Positions 721 through 48,990 of a DNA stretch of 64,000 bases are shown one piece after another (the stretch's first letter is position 1; every line of letters starts with the position of its first letter). Under the pieces are notes generated by a model. The model was given only the letters and a program-made list of their open reading frames with translations, did no database searches and had not been told where the DNA came from. A program made the position numbers and the translations under genes. Source of the DNA: an uncultured virus (IMG/VR IMGVR_UViG_3300028591_000172) (lineage: Duplodnaviria; Heunggongvirae; Uroviricota; Caudoviricetes); the IMG/VR virus record IMGVR_UViG_3300028591_000172. One strand, given 5' to 3'.

Positions 721-3294
721 ATGAACAAATTAAACAAATTAAGACAAGGACAAGAAATTGATTTAACATTCCTTAATCAATTTATTTCCACCGTAAACGA
801 AATCATTGATGAATTTGATTCAATAAAAAAAATCAACGCATCAAACGAACAAACATTAACTTCACTTGAAGAAACTCTTCATGATTTTAACGATAACTAT
901 TTAGAAAAAATAAATGCTGTTCCTAATTTAGTTGAAATACTTTCTCAATATATTGCTCTTTCAAACACTTTCACATTTGAAGATGACAAACTAGTTCAAG
1001 ATTCTCCTTTGCTTAAGCAAAAGAATCTTTCTTTTATTGTCACAGATAATATTGCTCCATATATAGCTGGAACGAAAAATGTTCAAGAAAAAACAATTAT
1101 CTTGGAGCTTAAAAATCAACAAGTTAATTATAGATATGAGCACACAGATATAGATAACGCTGAAGCTTTTGAAGAATTTGACGGAAATTTATATTATGCT
1201 GAAGATGGTTTATATGTTTTAGCAGATGAATTTGTAAGTGGCACAAGCTATTACAAAAAAGTAATTCCAGAATCTCAAGATACACCATTGACTGTTAAAG
1301 CAAACACATTATGGTTCTTCTACAATAGAGAATTTTATAACATGTCAACAGATAGTAACGGTCACACAATCATTCAAACAGTTCCTGTTATTTCTATTGA
1401 AGGCCCATTAGGACATGAAAAATGGGTTATCAACGGTGTAACAACAGAAGTTTACGCAAGAGGCCCACAAGGTGAAAAAGGCGAGACAGGTGCGACAGGT
1501 GCTACAGGTCCTAAAGGCGAAAGAGGATTCACTGGCGTTCAAGGTGCTACTGGTCCTAGAGGTAATCCTGGTAAGACACCAAAGATTTTAATTGCTTCTG
1601 CTGATAGTGATGATGGTGCTATTAATTTTACAGCTAATCAATTTGTTCCTGGCAGAAAATATATCGGATTAAAATTCGTTTATGAAGAAGATGATTCAGA
1701 TGTCATCGCAGCAACAAGATGGAACTGGATTAAAATAAAACAAGAAACATACTATCCACATGTTTCTGGTGACAAGCTTTATTTCTCTACAGAACCACCA
1801 AGTTCAAATGATCCAATTTACTCATCTGGTTATTCTATCAAAGGACCTAAAGGAGATACAGGTGCTACTGGTCCAGCTCCTACAATTAAATTTGTAGATT
1901 CTGAAGATCGAGTTGTAATAACTCCACAAGCAGTATCTGGAGACAATGGACAAATTCAATTGTTTAAATTGACAGACTTCAAAGGTCCTAAAGGTGACGA
2001 TGGAAAATCTGTTCAAATACAAGGAACAGCTGATGATATAGAAGATTTATTAACAAAATCAGCTTCAATTGGGGATGGATATATTGTCACAGAAATAGAA
2101 GAAGATGTTTCTGGATTAGAAGATCATGCTGGTGAACAAGGTGTTTTGTTTATTTACGCAAAAGAAAACAATCAAGGTCGTTGGATTTATGCTGGACAAA
2201 TTAAAGGTCCTAAAGGCGACGATGGTGAAAGAGGCCCGGCTGGAAGTATTGATTTAGTTACAGCAACAGCACATGAAGCATTATCCGTTGGCGTTACATT
2301 AACAGAAAGTGGAACCGCTTCTAATAAGAGTTTTGCTTTCGACTTTGCTATTCCTGCTGGTGCTGAAGGTGCTAGAGGTGCTGGTATTTATAGAGTTAGA
2401 CAAGCAACAAGTGTATTCAACAATCAAGAAATTTCTTCTAGTTATAAAGAAGGCGACATTATATTAACTGATGGCATGGATTTATTACGTGCCACATTAA
2501 ATGACCAAGATAATAAAATTTATTGGAGATCAGCCGGCAATATTAAAGGCGAAGCTGGTAATAAAATATTTATTTACACAGCATCTGAAGCTCCAACAAG
2601 TTATGTCTCTTCACCAAAAGAAGGTGACATAGCAATTTCAAATACATCGTTTGCTTTATATAAATATGTTTCTGGTGCTTGGCAACCATACGGAAGCTTT
2701 AAAGGAACTGCTGCCGGTTTTGGAACGCCAACTGTTACATCAACAAATATAGCTAATGTAGGCACACCAACTGTGACAGTTACAGCATCTGGTGATGATT
2801 CAGCTAAAATATTTAATTTTGACTTTGCCAACCTTAAAGGTGAAACCGGAGCTCAAGGTCCTAAAGGTGACACTGGCTCACAAGGTCCAAAAGGCGACAA
2901 AGGCGACAAAGGTGACAAAGGCGACACTGGAGCTGCTGGACATTATTACTTACACACATTAAATATTACAAATAAATATATTGTTGGAGCCGGTGGTCAA
3001 GGTCCTACATATGCAGAAAACAATTTTGTTTTCTCATTTATAAGCAGTCAATCTGCTAAATATGATGATGCAGGTATTAAACAAAACGCAGCTTATGTTT
3101 TAAAAAGAATTACTAACGCATATAAGACTGATGGTACACCAATAATAATAACGAATATAACTAGTTCAGGAATAACTGCTTTCGAAAAAAATAGCAGCGG
3201 AAATTTAGTTTCTTTAGTAGGAAAATCTACATGGTCAACAGATTATTACGTTACAGGATTGTGGGTTCATTCAGAAACAGTTGAAGAACTATAA
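721..3294 (+). CDS. Collagen-repeat tail fibre-like protein
   Basis: Several Gly-X-Y tracts (GPQGEKGETGATGATGPKGE, GPKGDKGDKGDKGDTG); N-terminal coiled coil; AGGAG RBS. Confidence 0.8.
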   Translation: MNKLNKLRQGQEIDLTFLNQFISTVNEIIDEFDSIKKINASNEQTLTSLEETLHDFNDNYLEKINAVPNLVEILSQYIALSNTFTFEDDKLVQDSPLLKQKNLSFIVTDNIAPYIAGTKNVQEKTIILELKNQQVNYRYEHTDIDNAEAFEEFDGNLYYAEDGLYVLADEFVSGTSYYKKVIPESQDTPLTVKANTLWFFYNREFYNMSTDSNGHTIIQTVPVISIEGPLGHEKWVINGVTTEVYARGPQGEKGETGATGATGPKGERGFTGVQGATGPRGNPGKTPKILIASADSDDGAINFTANQFVPGRKYIGLKFVYEEDDSDVIAATRWNWIKIKQETYYPHVSGDKLYFSTEPPSSNDPIYSSGYSIKGPKGDTGATGPAPTIKFVDSEDRVVITPQAVSGDNGQIQLFKLTDFKGPKGDDGKSVQIQGTADDIEDLLTKSASIGDGYIVTEIEEDVSGLEDHAGEQGVLFIYAKENNQGRWIYAGQIKGPKGDDGERGPAGSIDLVTATAHEALSVGVTLTESGTASNKSFAFDFAIPAGAEGARGAGIYRVRQATSVFNNQEISSSYKEGDIILTDGMDLLRATLNDQDNKIYWRSAGNIKGEAGNKIFIYTASEAPTSYVSSPKEGDIAISNTSFALYKYVSGAWQPYGSFKGTAAGFGTPTVTSTNIANVGTPTVTVTASGDDSAKIFNFDFANLKGETGAQGPKGDTGSQGPKGDKGDKGDKGDTGAAGHYYLHTLNITNKYIVGAGGQGPTYAENNFVFSFISSQSAKYDDAGIKQNAAYVLKRITNAYKTDGTPIIITNITSSGITAFEKNSSGNLVSLVGKSTWSTDYYVTGLWVHSETVEEL

Positions 3295-11023: not shown

Positions 11024-11632
11024 ATGGGGATTAAAATTGGAAACCTAAATCTAGGCTCCGCTTTTGTTGGTAATAAAGCCATACAAAAGATTTATATTGG
11101 CAATGATTTAAAATGGTCTGCTGAAGAAGATTTATTTGATTTATATTTAAGACACGAATTAGTTTCTGTTTCTGCCAAGCAATTAGGGAATATTACAAAA
11201 ATAGGAAGTGGTGCTTTCTATAATCAAACTACCCTAGTAGAAATTGAAATACCAAATACGGTTGTTTTGATAGACAAACACGCTTTTTATGGTTGTTCTT
11301 CCTTAACTTCGGTTACCATTCCTAATAATGTAACCTCAATTGGTGGCTATGCTTTCTCTAATTGTACATCTTTAATTTCAGTAACAATCCCTGATGGTAT
11401 CACTTCTATTGAAGAAAGTACTTTTGGTTGGTGTTCCTCACTCACATCTGTTGTCATACCCGCTAGTGTCACTTCAATTGGTCAACTTGCTTTTACATAT
11501 TGTACATCTCTCAACTCTATTACTTATAAATCAACAATGAATGACTGGAATAACATAACATTAGGAACTAACTGGCGGAGCAATTCTTCATTAACAACAG
11601 TCATTTGTACGGACGGAACGATTACTTTATAA
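11024..11632 (+). CDS. BspA-type leucine-rich repeat (LRR_5) protein
   Basis: Repeated IPxxVTSIGxxAFxxCxSLxSV units. Confidence 0.9.
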   Translation: MGIKIGNLNLGSAFVGNKAIQKIYIGNDLKWSAEEDLFDLYLRHELVSVSAKQLGNITKIGSGAFYNQTTLVEIEIPNTVVLIDKHAFYGCSSLTSVTIPNNVTSIGGYAFSNCTSLISVTIPDGITSIEESTFGWCSSLTSVVIPASVTSIGQLAFTYCTSLNSITYKSTMNDWNNITLGTNWRSNSSLTTVICTDGTITL

Positions 11633-11642
11633 GAGGTTCTTT

Positions 11643-12467
11643 ATGGCATTAAATCTATTTCAAAAATTAGTTCAAAAAAATCCAATAGACAGCGGGTGTA
11701 TAACATCTGACATTTTATCTTCTTTAGAAGTAATAGGTGACCATTGTTTTTATGTGCTTAGCGACGACTTTTTTCCAATAAAAGTATCTAACGTTGCTTT
11801 CAATAACAATTTAAGGGAATTAAAATACATCTCTGTATCTCCTGAATTCACACAATCAATAGTAATAGGTGAAAACGTTACAAAAATTGCGAATTTTACT
11901 ATGATGTTGTCAGGTTATGTTTCAGGAACAGATTACACCATAACGTTCAATTATTACGCAACGAACGCTGAAGATAATAACGTTGTAGGAGCAATTGCGG
12001 TACCTTGCTTTACAGGACAAAACAAAAGTAATAGCCAACAACAAGTAAATTTAACAGTTAACATAAACATAAAATCAACAGTGAGGACATTGCCAAACAA
12101 TGCGTTTTATTCACTTAACGGAGGCTCTATTTTTGTAACTTCAACGTGTAACATAAATATAGAAGAAGGATTGACAACATTAGGAGACAATGCTTTCCCT
12201 GTCACAGATTTAATTTTCCCTTCAACACTAATTACAATAAAAGGTGCGATAGATAGAGGAAACGTAAGTGGTCACACTTATACATTCAAAACACCTTCAG
12301 GAGTTGCGATGACACTTCCTACGGCTGGAAATGGCTCTGGAATGTTTTATAACAAAACAGCAAAAACAATGACCATTTATACTGATAATGAAACAATAAA
12401 AAATTATAACTGGTCAGCAGACAACGTAACACCAACGTTTTACCACTTAGATGGTACCGCTTGGTAA
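11643..12467 (+). CDS. Degenerate BspA-type LRR protein
   Basis: IGENVTKI, TVRTLPNNAF and EGLTTLGDNAF repeats. Confidence 0.65.
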   Translation: MALNLFQKLVQKNPIDSGCITSDILSSLEVIGDHCFYVLSDDFFPIKVSNVAFNNNLRELKYISVSPEFTQSIVIGENVTKIANFTMMLSGYVSGTDYTITFNYYATNAEDNNVVGAIAVPCFTGQNKSNSQQQVNLTVNINIKSTVRTLPNNAFYSLNGGSIFVTSTCNINIEEGLTTLGDNAFPVTDLIFPSTLITIKGAIDRGNVSGHTYTFKTPSGVAMTLPTAGNGSGMFYNKTAKTMTIYTDNETIKNYNWSADNVTPTFYHLDGTAW

Positions 12468-13036: not shown

Positions 13037-14383
13037 ATGAAACTATTTAATTCAAAAGAAGACTCACTATATCTAACTAGAATGCAATGGACAAAAGTGT
13101 TCACTGCTTTTTCTATAATGATCATAGCTCTATACATAGTTGCTATGGTTGCTTCTTTGTTAGGCAGTAAATATTTCATATTGAATTACCAGAATTCACA
13201 AATGGATAGAATCCAAGAGTGGTTAGTTAACTATAATTTATATCCACTCGTTATGGATTTATTTATGACTCTAGAATTTACCATAGTTATTTCATTTGTT
13301 CTTAAAAAGATTCCTAAAATATGGTATGTTCTAGCGTTTTATACAATTCCAATGATTCTTTATTATATAATGCATTTAATCTTTGGAGAATTTCCTGATA
13401 TAATTAGAGCTACATATCCATTTTTATTTTATTTAATAATACCTATTATTCAACAATGTATAGATAATAGAAAAGATGTTTACCGTCCTAAATTTAGTTG
13501 GAAAAAATATGGATTCTGTATAGTTAGACTATTAATCGCTACAGCTATAACTTTTGTTTTACAAATAATGATTTATGTAATTAAAGATGGCACATTCACT
13601 TTAGAAAATAAAGTAATGAATTTATCAGCTCACTTTATTTACACATTAGAATATGACATTGCCCTATCAGTAATACTCTATACGATATTACTTTTATATA
13701 GGGAGAAAGGAGACAGCAAATTATGGGCGACTTCCCAGGATCATGGTGGATCTTCCCAAACATCGACGAAGCAATCGCAGAAATCGTTGCGGAAGAATCT
13801 GACGAAGACACAAAAGCGTAAGATTCGTCTACTCTACTTAAGAGTTTATCTTACACAAATATGTGCGTTCCTTCTTTTGATGGTCTTACCATTCTTGTTA
13901 GGTAAAGTATTAGAATTCCTTGTTATGTATCTAGCATTCGCTATTGCCAGATATTTATTAGGTTTTAAATACTCATTACATTACAAGAAAGAATCAATGT
14001 GCATTACTGTTGGTGTTATTGTCTTCGGTATCTTGTCACTTGCTGTCCCTTTCTTTTACGTCACATTAGTATTAGCTATAACATTAGGCGTATCGTTAGC
14101 AATTTTGTTACATCTATCTTACAAATACAAAGGAATGTTCTTATTTGCTCAGGTAGCAAAGCCGGATAAATTCGCACTTCTTTATACTTTCTTTGATGGT
14201 AACTTAGAATATAGACACGTAAAACAAATGTGTATCTATAAAGGACTTAATCAAGAAGAAACAAAATTGATATGCGAATATACTGAAGGAAATAAAATTT
14301 CTTATATTGCCTGGAAAAATAACTATTCAGTTAGAATGACAATATATAAACTAGATGAAGCAATAGCAAAGCTAACTAAATAG
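13037..14383 (+). CDS. Multi-pass membrane protein with AgrB-like region and C-terminal HTH
   Basis: About 6 N-terminal TM segments; ARYLLGFKYSLHYKKESMC resembles the AgrB R..G.H...C catalytic segment; GLNQEE...GNKISYIA...YSVR resembles a LuxR/sigma4 HTH. Confidence 0.65.
   Translation: MKLFNSKEDSLYLTRMQWTKVFTAFSIMIIALYIVAMVASLLGSKYFILNYQNSQMDRIQEWLVNYNLYPLVMDLFMTLEFTIVISFVLKKIPKIWYVLAFYTIPMILYYIMHLIFGEFPDIIRATYPFLFYLIIPIIQQCIDNRKDVYRPKFSWKKYGFCIVRLLIATAITFVLQIMIYVIKDGTFTLENKVMNLSAHFIYTLEYDIALSVILYTILLLYREKGDSKLWATSQDHGGSSQTSTKQSQKSLRKNLTKTQKRKIRLLYLRVYLTQICAFLLLMVLPFLLGKVLEFLVMYLAFAIARYLLGFKYSLHYKKESMCITVGVIVFGILSLAVPFFYVTLVLAITLGVSLAILLHLSYKYKGMFLFAQVAKPDKFALLYTFFDGNLEYRHVKQMCIYKGLNQEETKLICEYTEGNKISYIAWKNNYSVRMTIYKLDEAIAKLTK
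13723..13821 (+). CDS. Nested 32-aa peptide MGDFPGSWWIFPNIDEAIAEIVAEESDEDTKA (AgrD/AIP-like precursor)
   Basis: Own RBS (AAGGAG 13707-13712), ATG 13723, TAA 13819-13821, in a different frame from the surrounding gene; ATC/TTC/GAC/AAC codons. Confidence 0.65.
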   Translation: MGDFPGSWWIFPNIDEAIAEIVAEESDEDTKA

Positions 14384-15836: not shown

Positions 15837-16244
15837 ATGAATAACAGTTTAATTTATTTAACAACTCCATCTACTGCTACAGTTGCGGCTGATGGCGTAT
15901 TACCATTAACTACTATTGTTAGAAGACGCGGTCAATCTGTTCAACAATCTAATGATTCCGTAGTCTTAGGTGCTCCAGGTTATTATCACGTCTCAGTTAA
16001 TGCGACATTCACAGCTCCAGAAGCAGGCGATGTTACATTTGAACTTAGACAAGACAACCTTCCAGTCTCTGGTGGCACAGCATCTACCACAATCACTACA
16101 GCAACAACTGAAGTTAGAAGTCTTTCATTCGAATCTATCATCAGAGTTCCTTGCTGCGGTGCACCAGTCACATTATCAGTAGTTAACACTGGCATTGCAA
16201 TTACCACATCTAATATTTCCTTCGCAGTTGAATACCTCGGATAG
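15837..16244 (+). CDS. Cassette gene 4, BclA-C/C1q-like beta-sandwich protein
   Basis: APGYYHVSVNATF motif; all-beta pattern. Confidence 0.6.
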   Translation: MNNSLIYLTTPSTATVAADGVLPLTTIVRRRGQSVQQSNDSVVLGAPGYYHVSVNATFTAPEAGDVTFELRQDNLPVSGGTASTTITTATTEVRSLSFESIIRVPCCGAPVTLSVVNTGIAITTSNISFAVEYLG

Positions 16245-16959: not shown

Positions 16960-17112
16960 ATGCCAATAAAAGAGAATCAGTGTTGCTACGCTTGCGAACA
17001 TTGTTTTGTCGCACATGACTACGCATTAACTTGTGAATTAACTCATAAAACTGTTCGTTGGGACGACGGTATGCTTTGTAAAAACTTTAAGGAGGAAAAG
17101 GAAGATGAGTAA
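16960..17112 (+). CDS. 50-aa Cys-rich protein (not in ORF track)
   Basis: AGGAGG RBS; MPIKENQCCYACEHC...C...C. Confidence 0.7.
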   Translation: MPIKENQCCYACEHCFVAHDYALTCELTHKTVRWDDGMLCKNFKEEKEDE

Positions 17113-17491
17113 AGAATTAGAATCATTAAAAGAATTAGGTGATTATCGCATTGATGTTGATAATGCCATAGGCTATTGTATCAAAGATACTTACGAATAT
17201 AGTGTCATTGAAACCGCACTTAAAGATTATGAAGAACTATTTAAAATGTTCCCTTACGAAGAAACTACTGCTAGACAACTACTTATTGTTCTCACTCAAT
17301 TAGGCATTAAAGATAGTGATACGCTATTAAAGAAACTCAAAGCATTAGAGTTTATTAAAGATATATTAGAAATTGAAATGTTTGTCGGTGCAAACAAAAG
17401 AGTTGATTATGTATTGTATTTCAAAAATGGCAAACACGCAGTTAATCTTAATGAAGAAACATACGATTTATTTAAAGAGGTATTGCTATGA
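17105..17491 (+). CDS. Hypothetical protein (paralogue of 18790-19227)
   Basis: Shared ETxLKxYEEL, KLKAL and YDLxKEVLL blocks. Confidence 0.75.
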   Translation: MSKELESLKELGDYRIDVDNAIGYCIKDTYEYSVIETALKDYEELFKMFPYEETTARQLLIVLTQLGIKDSDTLLKKLKALEFIKDILEIEMFVGANKRVDYVLYFKNGKHAVNLNEETYDLFKEVLL

Positions 17492-25868: not shown

Positions 25869-27812
25869 ATGAAGTTAGCTGAATTCAATAGGATAGTTAA
25901 TCCTAATGATGAAGCTTGCTACATTATAAAAACTTCCACAGATACAATAGATAGAGCCAAGTTCGCAGACATCAAATCTATACTGCGTTCAAGAAATGAT
26001 GTCTCACTTGGTATGTATGTCCCTAAAGGACTAATCGTTATAGAAATGACAGATGAATGCGTTGTTAATGCCATCATTCAACGCAAAGAGCAATTGATGA
26101 TAGTCAAAAAGGGAGACAAGTATTATATTTACGCAATGAGTTCCTTTGATAAAGTGACCATAAATAATATGCTTGCCTGTGGAGTTAATGCGAATACATT
26201 AGTGCACACGAAGAAAGGAACAGAAATCCTTCTTCCATTCCATTCACCAACAAACGTGCTTCCTAAATATAGTGATGTAGAAATTATACACTCTAATGGA
26301 ATAGGACCACTTCCAACCTGGTTGACACCGTTAAGACGAGGATCATCCAGTTCAGAAGACGGATTCCAATTCCCAATTAGAGAAAACGCATCAAGATTAT
26401 TAATGAACCACGTTATCAACATAGCAAGCTTCAATAGGGACCAGCAAGTTGAGCTATTAAAACTCATGAATAAATACTTGGTCGTCCCATCCCTAGATGA
26501 GCAAACAATTACGGGATTATGTGAATCAATTGCCGACACATTCTTATCAGAATTTATGAACAAGAGTGAATTCTTTCACGACAAGTTCGGTGACTATGTC
26601 ATTAAAGCATGTCACGTTAAGAAAGATAAGAAGAGTCACCATCTATACTTCTATGACGATAAAAATAATATCTATACAGATGATCCTAATTTCCTAAGAG
26701 GATACATCACAAAGCTTTGTCCTAGACTGAAGCAGTATCAGAAGGACGAAGCAATTAAATACATCCAAGATTACTTAGAAACAGAAACGGTTGAGTTTAA
26801 TTCTAATCCATTCAACGTTGTATTCAAGAACGGAATCTTACACTTAGACACATTAGAATTCGAGCCGATGTCACCTGACCATTTGGAAACAATTCGTATT
26901 AATGCGAACTATGATCCAAATGCTCATTCAGATACGGCTGATGAATTCTTCCATAATGTCACGTGTGGAGATATAGCAACTCAAACGTTACTCTTCGAGT
27001 CAATTGGCTACGCAATGTTAAAAATCGTAGAACTTGCTAAATCATTTATGTTAACTGGTAGTGGAAGAAATGGTAAATCCACATTCTTCGACCTCATCAC
27101 CGCCATACTTGGAGAAGAAAATTGCACCTCGCTTGCTCCAGAAGACTTAACAAATAACTTCAGAGCGAGCACACTGGTAGGCAAGCTTGCTTCTCTTGCG
27201 GCAGATATCTCAGGTAAACCGTTAACAGAAACTAGCAAGATTAAAAACATTGCTGCTGGCGATAGAATTCAAGTAGAAAGAAAATACTTCGACGCATATG
27301 ATGACCGAGTATTTGCTACATTATTCTTCGCCTGTAACAAATTACCAAAAACACCAGACACATCTGATGGTTTCTACCGTCGTTGGGTTATCATTCCATT
27401 CAATGCAGACCTAACTAAGGTGAAACAAGTTGAAGGTATCATGTTCAAAAAGAAACTCTTAAGTCAAGAGAGCATAGACTATATCGCTTATAAATCAGTC
27501 CATGCCATCTACAGAGTTCTTAATGAAACAATGGAATTCACTCAACCTAGTAGTGTCACAGCTATGCTTAACAATTATAGGATTAATAACTCTTCAGTCT
27601 TATCCTGGTTCAAAGAAGTATTTGTTAACAACAAAACTAATCCAACAGATGAAGAGAGAAGAGAAGGCATTGCCAGGATCCAAAATATGATGTTAGGCCA
27701 AGCGTATACAAACTACACAGAATGGTGTCAAGAAACCAATAAACAAAAATTCTCAAGACCGAGCTTCGAAGAAGAACTTAAGAACTACTTCGGTATCACT
27801 TGGGAGGATTAA
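25869..27812 (+). CDS. Primase-helicase with D5-like SF3 helicase
   Basis: FKNG, GSGRNGKST, FACN.LP...D.SDGFYRR. Confidence 0.9.
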   Translation: MKLAEFNRIVNPNDEACYIIKTSTDTIDRAKFADIKSILRSRNDVSLGMYVPKGLIVIEMTDECVVNAIIQRKEQLMIVKKGDKYYIYAMSSFDKVTINNMLACGVNANTLVHTKKGTEILLPFHSPTNVLPKYSDVEIIHSNGIGPLPTWLTPLRRGSSSSEDGFQFPIRENASRLLMNHVINIASFNRDQQVELLKLMNKYLVVPSLDEQTITGLCESIADTFLSEFMNKSEFFHDKFGDYVIKACHVKKDKKSHHLYFYDDKNNIYTDDPNFLRGYITKLCPRLKQYQKDEAIKYIQDYLETETVEFNSNPFNVVFKNGILHLDTLEFEPMSPDHLETIRINANYDPNAHSDTADEFFHNVTCGDIATQTLLFESIGYAMLKIVELAKSFMLTGSGRNGKSTFFDLITAILGEENCTSLAPEDLTNNFRASTLVGKLASLAADISGKPLTETSKIKNIAAGDRIQVERKYFDAYDDRVFATLFFACNKLPKTPDTSDGFYRRWVIIPFNADLTKVKQVEGIMFKKKLLSQESIDYIAYKSVHAIYRVLNETMEFTQPSSVTAMLNNYRINNSSVLSWFKEVFVNNKTNPTDEERREGIARIQNMMLGQAYTNYTEWCQETNKQKFSRPSFEEELKNYFGITWED

Positions 27813-27888
27813 CAAGGGTGGAACAGGCACATCCACTGATGTATCGTCTGTCATTGATACAGGGCTAGAGCAATCTGGCCCGCAAACT

Positions 27889-28028
27889 GGGCAGGTTCAG
27901 AACGACTACGTATCTAACTTTTCCTCCTTGTTAAAATCCATATTAATAAGGTTTCATATAATTATCCCAATCTGAATAAATTTCCAATAATAAATAGTCT
28001 CTCGGTGCGACTCCGAGACTGCCCACCA
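27889..28028 (+). ncRNA. tRNA/tmRNA-like RNA with a large central insert
   Basis: GGGCAG/CTGCCC acceptor stem, ACCA end, T-arm CTCGG-TGCGACT-CCGAG, GACTA/TAGTC helix. Confidence 0.6.
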
Positions 28029-28042
28029 ACAGGAGGAATAAT

Positions 28043-28402
28043 ATGAAAAAACTAAAAATCATGGAAATAAACGTGCTAGGGACTAAATACAAAATATATG
28101 TATCTACTCCTGACCAAGACGAAAAACTAAAAACATGCGATGGTTACATTATTCCAGAAGCAAAGATGATTATTCTCGATAGAAACAATAAGTCAATACA
28201 TCAAGAACACGTGTTGACTCACGAAATAACACACGCATTCTTATATGAATCTGGACTAGATGTAGAGACATGGGCCAACAACGAAGAGATTGTTGACTGG
28301 ATCGCGCTCCAATTAAATAAAATGTTTAAGACAACTAATGAGTCTTTAAAAAAACTTAAACCTTATTACACTAAACCAAAGGAGGCTGAACAAAATGGTT
28401 GA
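28043..28402 (+). CDS. HExxH metallopeptidase-like protein
   Basis: VLTHEITHAF...EEIVD. Confidence 0.75.
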   Translation: MKKLKIMEINVLGTKYKIYVSTPDQDEKLKTCDGYIIPEAKMIILDRNNKSIHQEHVLTHEITHAFLYESGLDVETWANNEEIVDWIALQLNKMFKTTNESLKKLKPYYTKPKEAEQNG

Positions 28403-28667
28403 ACAAAAACAAAGAAGTTTTCAAATCAGTATTAATGATGTTGATAAACTGTTTGAAGATCTAGCAAAGTATGATATCTTTCCAGAAAATATTGAAGATG
28501 GATTTGAATTCTCAATCCAATACGAAAATTACATCTACAAAATCGAAATTAACGTCATGGAAAAATTCACACCAGATGAAAGAGCGTTCATGATAACTAG
28601 ATATCCAATCATTAAAACATTCGCCGACATCCAAATGAGACTCTTCGGAAAAGTAGAATGGAAATAA
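28395..28667 (+). CDS. Hypothetical protein
   Basis: AAGGAGG RBS. Confidence 0.65.
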   Translation: MVEQKQRSFQISINDVDKLFEDLAKYDIFPENIEDGFEFSIQYENYIYKIEINVMEKFTPDERAFMITRYPIIKTFADIQMRLFGKVEWK

Positions 28668-28670
28668 AAT

Positions 28671-28697
28671 AAAAGACCTGCGATTTGCAGGCTTTTT
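28671..28697. terminator. Bidirectional terminator
   Basis: CCTGC-GATTT-GCAGG flanked by A and T tracts, between convergent genes. Confidence 0.75.
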
Positions 28698-33721: not shown

Positions 33722-35245
33722 ATGAAACACGTTGACACAAAAGTAATTAAAGAAACTCTTCAGCTCGCCAGTGATATTGTTACACCTACCATGGGACCTA
33801 AGGGACGCCTGGCCGTCATCTCAGACGAATTCTCTAGACCATACCTTACAGACGATGGAGTTACTGTGGCCAAAGAACTTCTAAACCTGGATGATCCATT
33901 CAAAAAAATGGTAGCGATATCCGCATGCGAAGCTGCCAACAACACAGAGAAATCCGCATTCGACGGAACAACACTCACAGTTCTCTTATTAAATGAATTC
34001 TACAAAGCTGGATTAAAATTAATTGAATCAGGATTACATCCTCAAACAGCAGCGGATAGAATCAAAGAAGAAATTGACATCGCTCTTAAAGAACTGGAGA
34101 AGCAGCGCATCAAGGTGACACCTGAAAATTCAGAGAAGCTCATCCGTGATGTTAGTTATATCACCACTAAGATTCCTGAAATCGGAGAACTTGTCTATCA
34201 AGCTTACACCAAAGCTGGCGATGCGATGAATGTCGTGATCGAACACGATCGTCAAATCCCAACCTCAGTGGTTGAGCACGTCGATGGAATGATAGTTAAC
34301 TCCGGATACTTCTCACCAGAACTAGCAAAGCTAGCAGGTGAAGATGAAATCTGGAAGAGAGATAACGCTAAAGTGTTCCTCCTATCCGAAGGTATCCTTA
34401 CAGTGAATGGACTCAGAGGACTCTTTGGTTCCATCCCTGATAAGAAGACTCCATTAGTATTCGTCTTCGATCGTAACTATAATCCAGAGATGCTCAAGGG
34501 ACTGATTGAAAATTTATCAGCAAATAAGTTTGATTTCATGTTCATGTTCATCAACGACAGTAGACCAGATGAGATCTTCTTAGACATCGCTGCCAAGACT
34601 GGAGGCAAGATTCAATCCGCTACATATAACACCACGGATTATCTCTATGAATATGCGGGAACTGCTGATCATATCGAAATTGAAATCGATAAGTCAACCA
34701 TCATCGCTAATGGAAATCCAGATGAGGTGAAGGCTAGATTAAATTCTTATAAGAAAGAACTTAAGAAGAACGAATTCACAACTGGCTATGTCAGAGCTGA
34801 TGTTCTCAACCGTCGTATGGCCAACCTAGGAGCTGGCGTCACTAAGATTAAGATTGCTGCTCAATCAGTAACTGAATACAGAACCATCCGCTTCAAATTA
34901 GATGACGCAATTGGTGCTGTAAGATGTGCTCTTAAGGATGGCGTACTACTTGGTGGAGGTAAAGCACTTGCTTCTATACAAAGCGGCGTCGCTATTAAGG
35001 ATGCGTTAGTTGCTCCGATTAAAACCATCTTAGCCAATGCTGGATATGAATATAAACCTAATGAAACAACCAGAGCTGGACATGGAATCGATGCTCGCAC
35101 TGGGCTGGATGTAGATTTATATGAATCAGGCATCATAGATAGCTACACATCAATAGAAACAGCAGTAAAGAATGCTGAGTCAATCGCATGTAGCTACCTA
35201 CGAGCTTACATATTAATTAATATGAATGTAAAGGAAGGCAATTAA
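33722..35245 (+). CDS. groEL: GroEL-like chaperonin
   Basis: TMGPKGR, DGVTVAKE, DGTT, DDAIGAVRCA, GGG, GIID. Confidence 0.93.
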   Translation: MKHVDTKVIKETLQLASDIVTPTMGPKGRLAVISDEFSRPYLTDDGVTVAKELLNLDDPFKKMVAISACEAANNTEKSAFDGTTLTVLLLNEFYKAGLKLIESGLHPQTAADRIKEEIDIALKELEKQRIKVTPENSEKLIRDVSYITTKIPEIGELVYQAYTKAGDAMNVVIEHDRQIPTSVVEHVDGMIVNSGYFSPELAKLAGEDEIWKRDNAKVFLLSEGILTVNGLRGLFGSIPDKKTPLVFVFDRNYNPEMLKGLIENLSANKFDFMFMFINDSRPDEIFLDIAAKTGGKIQSATYNTTDYLYEYAGTADHIEIEIDKSTIIANGNPDEVKARLNSYKKELKKNEFTTGYVRADVLNRRMANLGAGVTKIKIAAQSVTEYRTIRFKLDDAIGAVRCALKDGVLLGGGKALASIQSGVAIKDALVAPIKTILANAGYEYKPNETTRAGHGIDARTGLDVDLYESGIIDSYTSIETAVKNAESIACSYLRAYILINMNVKEGN

Positions 35246-48913: not shown

Positions 48914-48990
48914 GGATCATTAGCTCAGCTGGTAGAGCACCTGACTCATAATCAGTAGGTCCACGGTTCGAATCACGTGATGATCCACCA
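48914..48990 (+). tRNA. tRNA with CAT anticodon (Ile2-like or Met)
   Basis: GGATCAT/ATGATCC acceptor stem, TAGCTCAG..GGTAGAGC D-arm, CTCATAA loop, TTCGAAT T-loop, encoded CCA. Confidence 0.9.

Follow-up and report, generated by a model that had tools for sequence, protein, structure and literature searches.

We describe a conserved 140-nt element (positions 27889-28028) in DNA of the uncultured virus IMGVR_UViG_3300028591_000172 (IMG/VR; Caudoviricetes), a gut phage, analyzed as one stretch of 64,000 nucleotides that is called the window throughout. The element consists of an acceptor stem, a T arm and an A-CCA tail of tRNA type and an AU-rich insert with CCUCCUU, and it follows a D5-type primase/helicase gene. 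This structure, its conservation and covariation, the conservation of the motif, and the operon context are established. As to its function, we tentatively favor, with confidence somewhat short of even, an RNA that would be excised by RNase P and would present a copy of the ribosomal anti-Shine-Dalgarno (anti-SD) sequence on a tRNA scaffold, as judged from sequence features.

The proposed course of events is as follows. The acceptor stem and the T arm stacked on it would form a tRNA-like minihelix, the frame of a non-coding phage RNA that would be co-transcribed with the primase gene. Host RNase P may accept the minihelix as a substrate and cut between U27888 and G27889, as the sequence determinants described below suggest, and the stem together with the N-C-C tail would shield a stable RNA of ~140 nt. 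Its cargo would be the AU-rich insert, in which CCUCCUU copies the anti-SD of 16S rRNA. This motif could pair with the SD sites of mRNAs and compete with ribosomes. Before processing, the anti-SD may pair with the purine-rich stretch around the primase stop codon (helix P0), and cleavage may unmask it. Such an element would be a natural counterpart of the engineered 'tRNA scaffold'.

Fold, covariation and ends of the element

Relatives were sought in metagenome contigs with a profile of 37 primases. Four close relatives were retrieved, with primases 74% (L203), 72% (L204), 69% (L205), and 68% (L283) identical to that of the window; the L283 contig is binned in a Bacilli metagenome-assembled genome (MAG). 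Together with the window they form the near-clade sample of five sequences, to which all counts out of five refer. The element is present at the same spot in all four relatives, after Erf and the primase and before an orthologue of the small peptidase gene found there in the window; in L283, an extra small open reading frame (ORF) lies between the two. Among INPHARED phages no close relative was found by blastn, and the best primase tblastn matches were below 32% identity. In IMG/VR no near-clade relative was found, the top primase identity being 46%.

The lengths of the five elements range from 96 to 140 nt and the insert is not alignable between relatives. The acceptor stem reads GGGCAG/CUGCCC in the window and L203, GGGCGG/CCGCCC in L205, GGGCGA/UCGCCC in L283, and GGGUGU/GCACCC in L204. 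Similarly, the T stem reads UCUCGG/CCGAGA in the window and L205, UCUUGG/CCAAGA in L203 and L283, and UCUCAG/CUGAGA in L204. In the alignment of the five sequences, 60 out of 60 stem cells are paired and 5 of the 12 pairs are changed on both sides (8 cells). This covariation score was reached by none of 500 shuffles, and in a control with the partners slid by 1-3 columns only 33-53% of the cells were paired, with zero compensatory change. When the plus strand is read, the stems and the upstream hairpin H3 contain G-U pairs.

Folding of the 140 nt gave a minimum free energy (MFE) of -32.8 kcal/mol (z -4.16; 0 of 200 shuffles were equally stable), and the MFE fold retains the acceptor stem and the T arm. 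The acceptor and T arm are of tRNA type, with U54, C56, R57, and A58 in the T-loop and a G53-C61 closing pair. The element is not a tRNA, however: tRNA finders detected no cloverleaf with D arm and anticodon arm, and the sequence holds no anticodon arm. A preliminary description, made by a model from the sequence alone, had listed the 6-bp acceptor stem, the T arm with loop TGCGACT, the A plus CCA, and the position of CCTCCTT, all of which the sequence contains exactly as described, and the three hairpins it placed just upstream are likewise present (Table 1). Its GACTA/TAGTC helix and unpaired D-like segment are uncertain. The two strands are complementary and analogous 5-bp helices abutting the T arm were found by eye in three of the five sequences, namely in the window, L205 (AGUCU/AGACU), and L283 (UAAGC/GCUUA), but the MFE fold favors pairing of GUUCAGA with UCUGAAU, which replaces both the helix and the free D-like segment.

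ARAGORN and Rfam, two of the checks which that description had proposed, were run and gave no call at the element. In the window, the sole ARAGORN call was a tRNA-Met at 48914-48990, with neither a tRNA nor a tmRNA (transfer-messenger RNA) at the element. No Rfam family matched the element at gathering scores, at E<=10 over 27700-28150, or at E<=1 over the whole window; among 4227 families, one chance-level match only fell at the site.

The ends are conserved in a particular way. U at -1, G at +1, the 12-bp acceptor/T stack, and the T-loop U-N-C-R-A-Y-U were found in five of five sequences; position 55 is G in four, the loop of L283 being the canonical UUCGACU. The five tails read ACCA, ACCU, ACCU, UCCU, and GCCG. 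Hence N73-C74-C75 is invariant, A76 is encoded solely in the window, and the discriminator differs (A, A, A, U, and G). Excerpts of PMC4919922 state that bacterial RNase P favors U at -1, that its L15 loop pairs with R73-C74-C75, and that its substrates include pre-tmRNA and the C4 antisense RNA of phages P1/P7. The sequence determinants of bacterial RNase P substrates, that is U(-1), G+1, ~12 stacked bp, and N73-C74-C75, are all present in the five sequences. From their conservation, and that of the T-loop, we infer processing by RNase P. What is conserved would then be an RNase P recognition set and not a fixed aminoacylation identity, which is unlikely since the discriminator varies and no anticodon loop exists. 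The preliminary description had proposed a tRNA-processed stable small RNA (sRNA) that blocks ribosome binding sites or, alternatively, a decoy for tRNA-targeting defences. In the former, the processing fits the conserved determinants and the blocking is putative, whereas the latter finds no support, given the variable discriminator and the missing anticodon loop. Its CCA end is encoded in the window and is not conserved in the relatives, which keep N-C-C alone.

These data also bear on two readings of the locus as DNA. Origins of staphylococcal pathogenicity islands contain an AT-rich region flanked by inverted repeats that are bound by a replication protein. The element could likewise be a replication origin, with an AT-rich unwinding region between inverted repeats and with the covariation imitated by changes in two arms: it lies immediately 3' of the D5/DUF5906 primase-helicase gene, and its 85-nt AU-rich core sits between GC-rich inverted repeats. 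We consider this very improbable. Iterons are absent, the direct repeats in 27780-28060 amounting to two chance-sized pairs, and G-U pairs are tolerated solely in the plus-strand reading. Furthermore, the T-loop consensus is conserved together with U(-1) and N-C-C, GNRA tetraloops cap H3, and a promoter and a terminator surround the locus in distant relatives.

The other reading takes the element for the core or remnant of a phage attachment site (attP), copied from the end (3') of a host gene for a tRNA or tmRNA and accompanied by a chance 5' complement. It is close to refuted. The T-loop variant UGCGACU is common, with the pattern GGTGCGACTCC-N10-ACCA at no fewer than 120 places in IMG/VR (at least), and among the matches listed many that have a TGCGACT T arm and ACCA without a 5' partner do resemble fragments, for example tmRNA ends CAGCTCCACCA. 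In the element, however, the 5' strand covaries with the 3' strand, and a degenerate pattern of T arm and acceptor end had 0 matches in genomes of 185,579 species. No integrase was found among the 70 window proteins scanned, and the MAG containing L283 has a tmRNA with a different end. As a separate observation, two unrelated IMG/VR phages (L001, 2925-3025; L002, 2938-3025) have GGTGCGACTCC-N4-CTGCCCACCA as their 3' end, as does the window. Their RNAs fold as tRNA-like RNAs with a long variable arm and were missed by ARAGORN. The L002 RNA has a Tyr-type anticodon loop (CUGUAAA), and a promoter-like site and a strong hairpin surround the L001 RNA.

The anti-SD motif and its putative masking helix

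Despite the unalignable insert, CUCC was found in five of five and CCUCC in four of five near-clade elements. The motif reads UUCCUCCUUG in the window and L203, GUCCUCCUUG in L204, CACCUCCAA in L283, and AUCUCCUUG in L205. The preliminary description had staked its case beforehand on the conservation of the stems and of an anti-SD in the AU-rich insert; both stems covary, CCUCCUU is present, and its CUCC/CCUCC core is kept in the relatives. When the two stems were imposed as constraints, folding left the 5' part of the motif mostly unpaired and often paired the 3' CCUU. The unpaired probability in the window is 0.99-1.0 for CCU and near 0 for CCUU; the motif is mostly open in L205 and L283.

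The window also allows a helix (P0) between 27802-27824, around the primase stop codon, and the anti-SD region 27920-27940, with an RNAduplex energy of -20.4 kcal/mol and a perfect 9-nt inverted repeat inside it (27809-27817 with 27926-27934). Comparable pairing exists in L203, L205, and L283, where the sequences differ and track the last primase codons of each, and none exists in L204. Shuffled anti-SD segments reached the observed energy in 16, 2, 4, 212, and 1 of 300 trials for the five sequences. Hairpin H1 and P0 are in competition, and for topological reasons P0 also competes with the acceptor stem; in MFE folds of the precursor, L203 adopts P0 and the window retains the tRNA-like fold. 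H1 and H2 are almost invariant in four of five sequences, loops included, and are far better kept than the adjoining coding DNA. In the relatives H3 differs in sequence and is always a strong hairpin, with GNRA-type loops in three of four (GCAA, GCAA, and GAAA). The H1 loop ACAGGC is able to pair with the H2 loop GUCUGU.

Two metatranscriptome libraries contain small shares of the region (0.15 and 0.06 of sampled words). Their assembled contigs, in which transcription, ends, strand, and level are not readable and uncovered parts are meaningless, cover parts of the element and are weak evidence for the favored reading. One library, labelled sheep gut, has contigs identical to the window at 27950-28100 and 28203-28437. 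The other has a variant contig over 27918-28027 with two other letters and an AAC insertion, which fall in the insert and not in the stems.

Table 1. Features of the element and its surroundings in the window
Feature	Position	Strand	Remarks
D5-type primase/helicase gene	25869-27812	+	Pfam DUF5906, D5_N, phrog_864; the element comes after its stop codon
P0 5' strand: last primase codons, stop codon, start of hairpin 1	27802-27824	+	complementary to 27920-27940
Leader hairpin H1 (GGUGGA...UCCAC)	27817-27837	+	nearly identical in window, L203, L205, L283
Leader hairpin H2 (UGUAUC...GAUACA)	27840-27861	+	sequence conserved including loop
Leader hairpin H3, 8 bp, GCAA tetraloop	27862-27881	+	ends 7 nt before predicted cleavage site
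U(-1) of predicted RNase P site	27888	+	T before GGG in 5/5 sequences
Acceptor stem 5' strand GGGCAG	27889-27894	+	partner 28019-28024; compensatory changes in 3/6 pairs
Linker GUUCAGAAC and GACUA (5' strand of possible helix abutting T arm)	27895-27908	+	uncertain
GACTA	27904-27908	+	complementary to TAGTC 27995-27999
AU-rich insert	27909-27994	+	length and sequence vary among relatives
Anti-SD motif UUCCUCCUU	27921-27929	+	CCUCC 4/5, CUCC 5/5
CCTCCTT	27923-27929	+	inside AU-rich insert
UAGUC, 3' strand of possible helix abutting T arm	27995-27999	+	uncertain, as for the linker
T arm, 6-bp stem, loop UGCGACU	28000-28018	+	compensatory changes in 2/6 pairs; G-C closing pair 5/5
T stem strand TCTCGG	28000-28005		
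T loop TGCGACT	28006-28012		
T stem strand CCGAGA	28013-28018		
Acceptor stem 3' strand CUGCCC	28019-28024	+	
Discriminator A	28025	+	
CCA	28026-28028	+	N-C-C 5/5; final A only in window
SD AGGAGG	28031-28036	+	starts 3 nt past CCA
Small HExxH peptidase gene, next in operon	28043-28402	+	orthologues follow element in L203, L204, L205, L283
Terminator-like hairpin closing transcription unit	28677-28691	+	

The same locus in distant relatives and the weighing of readings

Distant relatives, with primases 41-48% identical, gave 27 non-redundant loci. In 23 of them, a TATAAT box stands no more than 45 nt from the primase stop. The layout continues with a 5' hairpin, ACCUCCUUUCU-type motifs, and a terminator. 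The motif reads UCACCUCCUUUCUUA in L130 and AUACCUCCUUUCUA in L217 and L124, and a second copy lies in the terminator loop in three loci read (L215, L216, and L124). These strings and ACCUCCUUUCU equal the 3' tail of 16S rRNA. Of 32 non-redundant loci, 19 contain CCTCC in the first 150 nt past the primase stop (4 of the 5 near ones and 15 of the 27 distant ones), a count inflated by the relatedness of the loci; among background 150-nt windows from these loci, 75 of 1393 (5%) contain it. Since the gene that comes next is convergent in the distant relatives, the motif cannot serve there as a leader or other cis regulator of a gene downstream. A covariance model trained on the five near-clade elements matched only those five sequences among 35 sources (best other match: L002, E 0.19); the tRNA-like frame is specific to the near clade.

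Further features were noticed at these loci. In L123-L130 and L206-L221, the 150 nt after the primase stop hold promoter-driven small RNAs with a 5' hairpin and then ACCUCCUUUCU-type strings, some of which have T-loop-like hairpins (loops TGCGATT, TGCAATT, and TTTAATT). In L127, L129, and L224, and in L128, L223, L225, and L226, another conserved non-coding stretch, approximately GGTCTTGT(T)CGTTKGTGWGA...ATCTTCAAMMA, replaces the anti-SD RNA after the primase stop and likewise stands behind a TATAAT box. Names of six distant-relative contigs are absent from the candidate RNAs in four supplement files of PMC10690425.

Building on the distant loci, a wider reading can be formulated, which we regard as rather doubtful though credible. 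A family of roughly 78-kb uncultured gut phages would keep copies of the 16S 3' tail (hairpin and ACCUCCUUUCU) after the primase, and the clade of the window would have moved its copy into a tRNA-like minihelix. RNase P would excise this minihelix and unmask it from P0, and it would then compete for SD sites or act as a decoy for factors that bind the 16S tail. This would represent a so far undescribed means by which a virus reprograms translation initiation.

Several points weigh against an excised, anti-SD-presenting RNA. The covariation rests on only five sequences, which is a small sample. L205 has UCUCC instead of CCUCC, in three of five sequences the predicted fold pairs the 3' half of the motif, and the encoded CCA is not conserved. 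One RNA-library contig continues beyond the predicted 3' end and reaches the peptidase gene. The phage's own genes share the same SD (40 of 71 gene starts in the window are GGAGG-like), so that an unselective blocker would strike the phage too. The near-clade covariance model matches no distant relative, so that only position and motif argue for homology between the near and the distant type of RNA. Finally, the motif conservation in the near clade could alternatively be attributed to P0 pairing.

The last point leads to a reading in which the element is an mRNA punctuation and stability element only. RNase P would split the primase message from the peptidase message, H1-H3 would guard the 3' end of the former, the minihelix would guard the 5' end of the latter, and CCUCC would be kept for P0 alone. 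Cleavage of mRNA by RNase P is reported in excerpts of PMC4919922. P0 complementarity is found in four of five sequences, where it changes along with the last primase codons, a stable GNRA-capped H3 stands 4-7 nt ahead of the predicted cut, and the SD of the next gene begins 3-5 nt past N-C-C in four of five; the contig that spans the 3' end also fits. However, this reading leaves unexplained why distant relatives make a promoter-driven RNA with the 16S tail but without a P0 partner inside the transcript, and L204 has no P0 yet retains CCUCCUUG. On balance, we hold it to be unlikely.

The architecture recalls the tRNA-like domain of tmRNA, a resemblance drawn in the preliminary description that proved apt: acceptor, single-stranded linker, helix, T arm, and ACCA follow one another in both. 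The element might thus be a degenerate, tag-less tmRNA-like RNA that mimics this domain and hinders trans-translation, for example via SmpB. A tmRNA of mycobacteriophage DS6A without a coding sequence is reported, in excerpts of PMC11915505, to inhibit host tmRNA and provides a precedent. In distant relatives, promoter-preceded RNAs of 83-92 nt were observed (L215, 5564-5655; L217, 5548-5630; L130, 5566-5653; L214, 5563-5654). Their match to the Rfam tmRNA model is confined to its tRNA-like domain and, at 32-42 bits (E 2e-9 to 1.5e-13), stays below the gathering score of 47. They carry G3-U70 and ACCA/ACCU tails, were missed by ARAGORN, and look like tag-less mini-tmRNAs. The window has no such tmRNA-domain-only gene (Rfam, E<=1, whole window), and the element could be its counterpart. 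Against this stands the third acceptor pair, which is G3-C70 in five of five and never G3-U70. No match to Rfam tmRNA (RF00023) was found at E<=10 and ARAGORN gave no call; the discriminator varies, A76 is not encoded in four of five sequences, and the anti-SD motif is left unexplained. The departures from tmRNA that the preliminary description had pointed out, the lack of G3-U70 and of an evident tag ORF, were thus borne out. No tag reading frame is present, as ARAGORN called no tmRNA and the insert is unalignable and full of stops, although tag-less forms are known and this is not decisive alone. We consider a tmRNA-like inhibitor improbable.

A further alternative is a specific repressor of the downstream HExxH peptidase gene, acting in cis or trans by pairing with its translation start region in the manner of C4, itself listed as an RNase P substrate (PMC4919922, excerpts). 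In the window, UUCCUCCU (27921-27928) complements AGGAGGAA (28031-28038), 27952-27963 matches 28037-28048 across the start codon, and the peptidase follows the element in four of five sequences. However, the pairing between each insert and its own start was equalled or beaten by 14, 14, 46, 163, and 157 of 300 shuffled inserts, and it was no better than the pairing with the start regions of the other relatives. In L283 the additional small ORF separates element and peptidase gene, and in distant relatives that strand carries no gene downstream. We give little credence to such a repressor.

Setting, known counterparts and significance

The element lies inside a replication module that comprises a helicase, a VRR-NUC nuclease, a PD-(D/E)XK exonuclease, SSB, Erf, and the D5-type primase/helicase. 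No plus-strand promoter-like site was found between the primase gene and the element and no terminator directly after it, the first terminator-like hairpin being that at 28677. The element is, therefore, probably transcribed within the primase operon.

Two minus-strand candidates were rejected at this locus. AAGGAGG as the SD of a small ORF has no start codon at workable spacing in the window and L204, and in L203 and L205 an ATG follows merely 0-1 nt past the motif. For a minus-strand terminator (28018-28000), no minus-strand gene ends there and the T-run is absent in relatives. Among the 71 gene starts of the window, the start region 17075-17107 (UUAAGGAGGAAAAGG) of the gene at 17105-17491 has the longest complementarity to the anti-SD stretch (-28.8 kcal/mol; mean -13.2, sd 4.9 over the 71 starts).

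Elsewhere in the window, a phage-encoded GroEL-type chaperonin gene (Cpn60_TCP1, phrog_5725) was found at 33722-35245. Stop-codon reassignment was considered for the ORF-poor 50-64 kb and rejected, as one giant frame is open there under the standard code instead. This ORF runs from 50448 to past the window end, has >4517 codons and is still open, and represents a giant phage protein. A Firmicutes host is suggested by the proteins encoded at 721-3294, 11024-12467, 13037-14383, and 15837-16244, whose features are collagen repeats, leucine-rich repeats of BspA type, an AgrB-like domain, and the C-terminal domain of BclA. The longest contig with the window's own primase has 78,398 bases, and many relatives are about 75-79 kb.

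The element draws on known kinds of RNA, namely tmRNA-like and tRNA-like phage RNAs, RNase P-processed phage regulators, and SD-targeting sRNAs. With the tRNA-like domain of tmRNA, including the tag-less forms of jakobid mitochondria, some plastids, and DS6A (PMC11915505, excerpts), it shares the acceptor/T-arm stack, the lack of an anticodon arm, a linker in place of the D arm, an internal insert, an N-CCA-type 3' end, and a presumed role as RNase P substrate. It differs from tmRNA in G3-C70, the lack of a tag frame, G at T-loop position 55 in four of five sequences, the lack of an RF00023 match, the variable discriminator, and an anti-SD motif that is absent from tmRNA.

The C4 antisense RNA of P1/P7 (Rfam family RF01695) has two target blocks in its own operon and acts by pairing near ribosome binding sites. 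As a phage RNA cut from an operon transcript by RNase P (Hartmann et al. 1995, cited in PMC4919922) it resembles the element as proposed here, but there is no Rfam match or sequence relation, and the element has no above-shuffle complementarity to its own downstream gene.

The C-rich, SD-targeting small RNAs of the RsaE/RoxS type in Firmicutes carry a pyrimidine-rich motif in loops or single strands. The element has a pyrimidine-rich, SD-complementary motif of mixed predicted accessibility, and the RNAs of the distant relatives share the layout with promoter, 5' hairpin, a motif in a single strand, and terminator. A promoter and terminator of its own, as expected of a trans-acting SD-targeting sRNA, are absent from the window RNA, whereas the TATAAT promoter is found in 23 of the 27 distant loci. 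Unlike the RsaE/RoxS type, the element is framed by a tRNA-like helix and its motif copies the 16S tail CCUCCUU and not a CCCC run.

In the engineered tRNA scaffold, a foreign RNA takes the place of the anticodon arm and the tRNA frame provides processing and nuclease protection. That scaffold is man-made and keeps the D arm, whereas the element is natural and keeps only acceptor and T arms. The RNAC and RNAD of phage T4 have tRNA-like ends. They are small stable phage RNAs (species 1 and 2 RNAs) linked to tRNA processing (PMC3014915, excerpts); they differ in lying within a tRNA gene cluster and in that an anti-SD is not reported.

A literature search found no description of a tRNA-like phage RNA with an anti-SD. 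Small RNAs of phages are poorly known, and the role of the tRNA-like T4 RNAC and RNAD has been open for decades. If the favored reading is true, the element would be a natural use of the tRNA-scaffold principle and a phage RNA that imitates the mRNA-docking sequence of the ribosome. The family is abundant in metagenomes, with 253 primase relatives at E<=0.001, and the result would therefore apply widely, offering a handle on how phages bias translation initiation.

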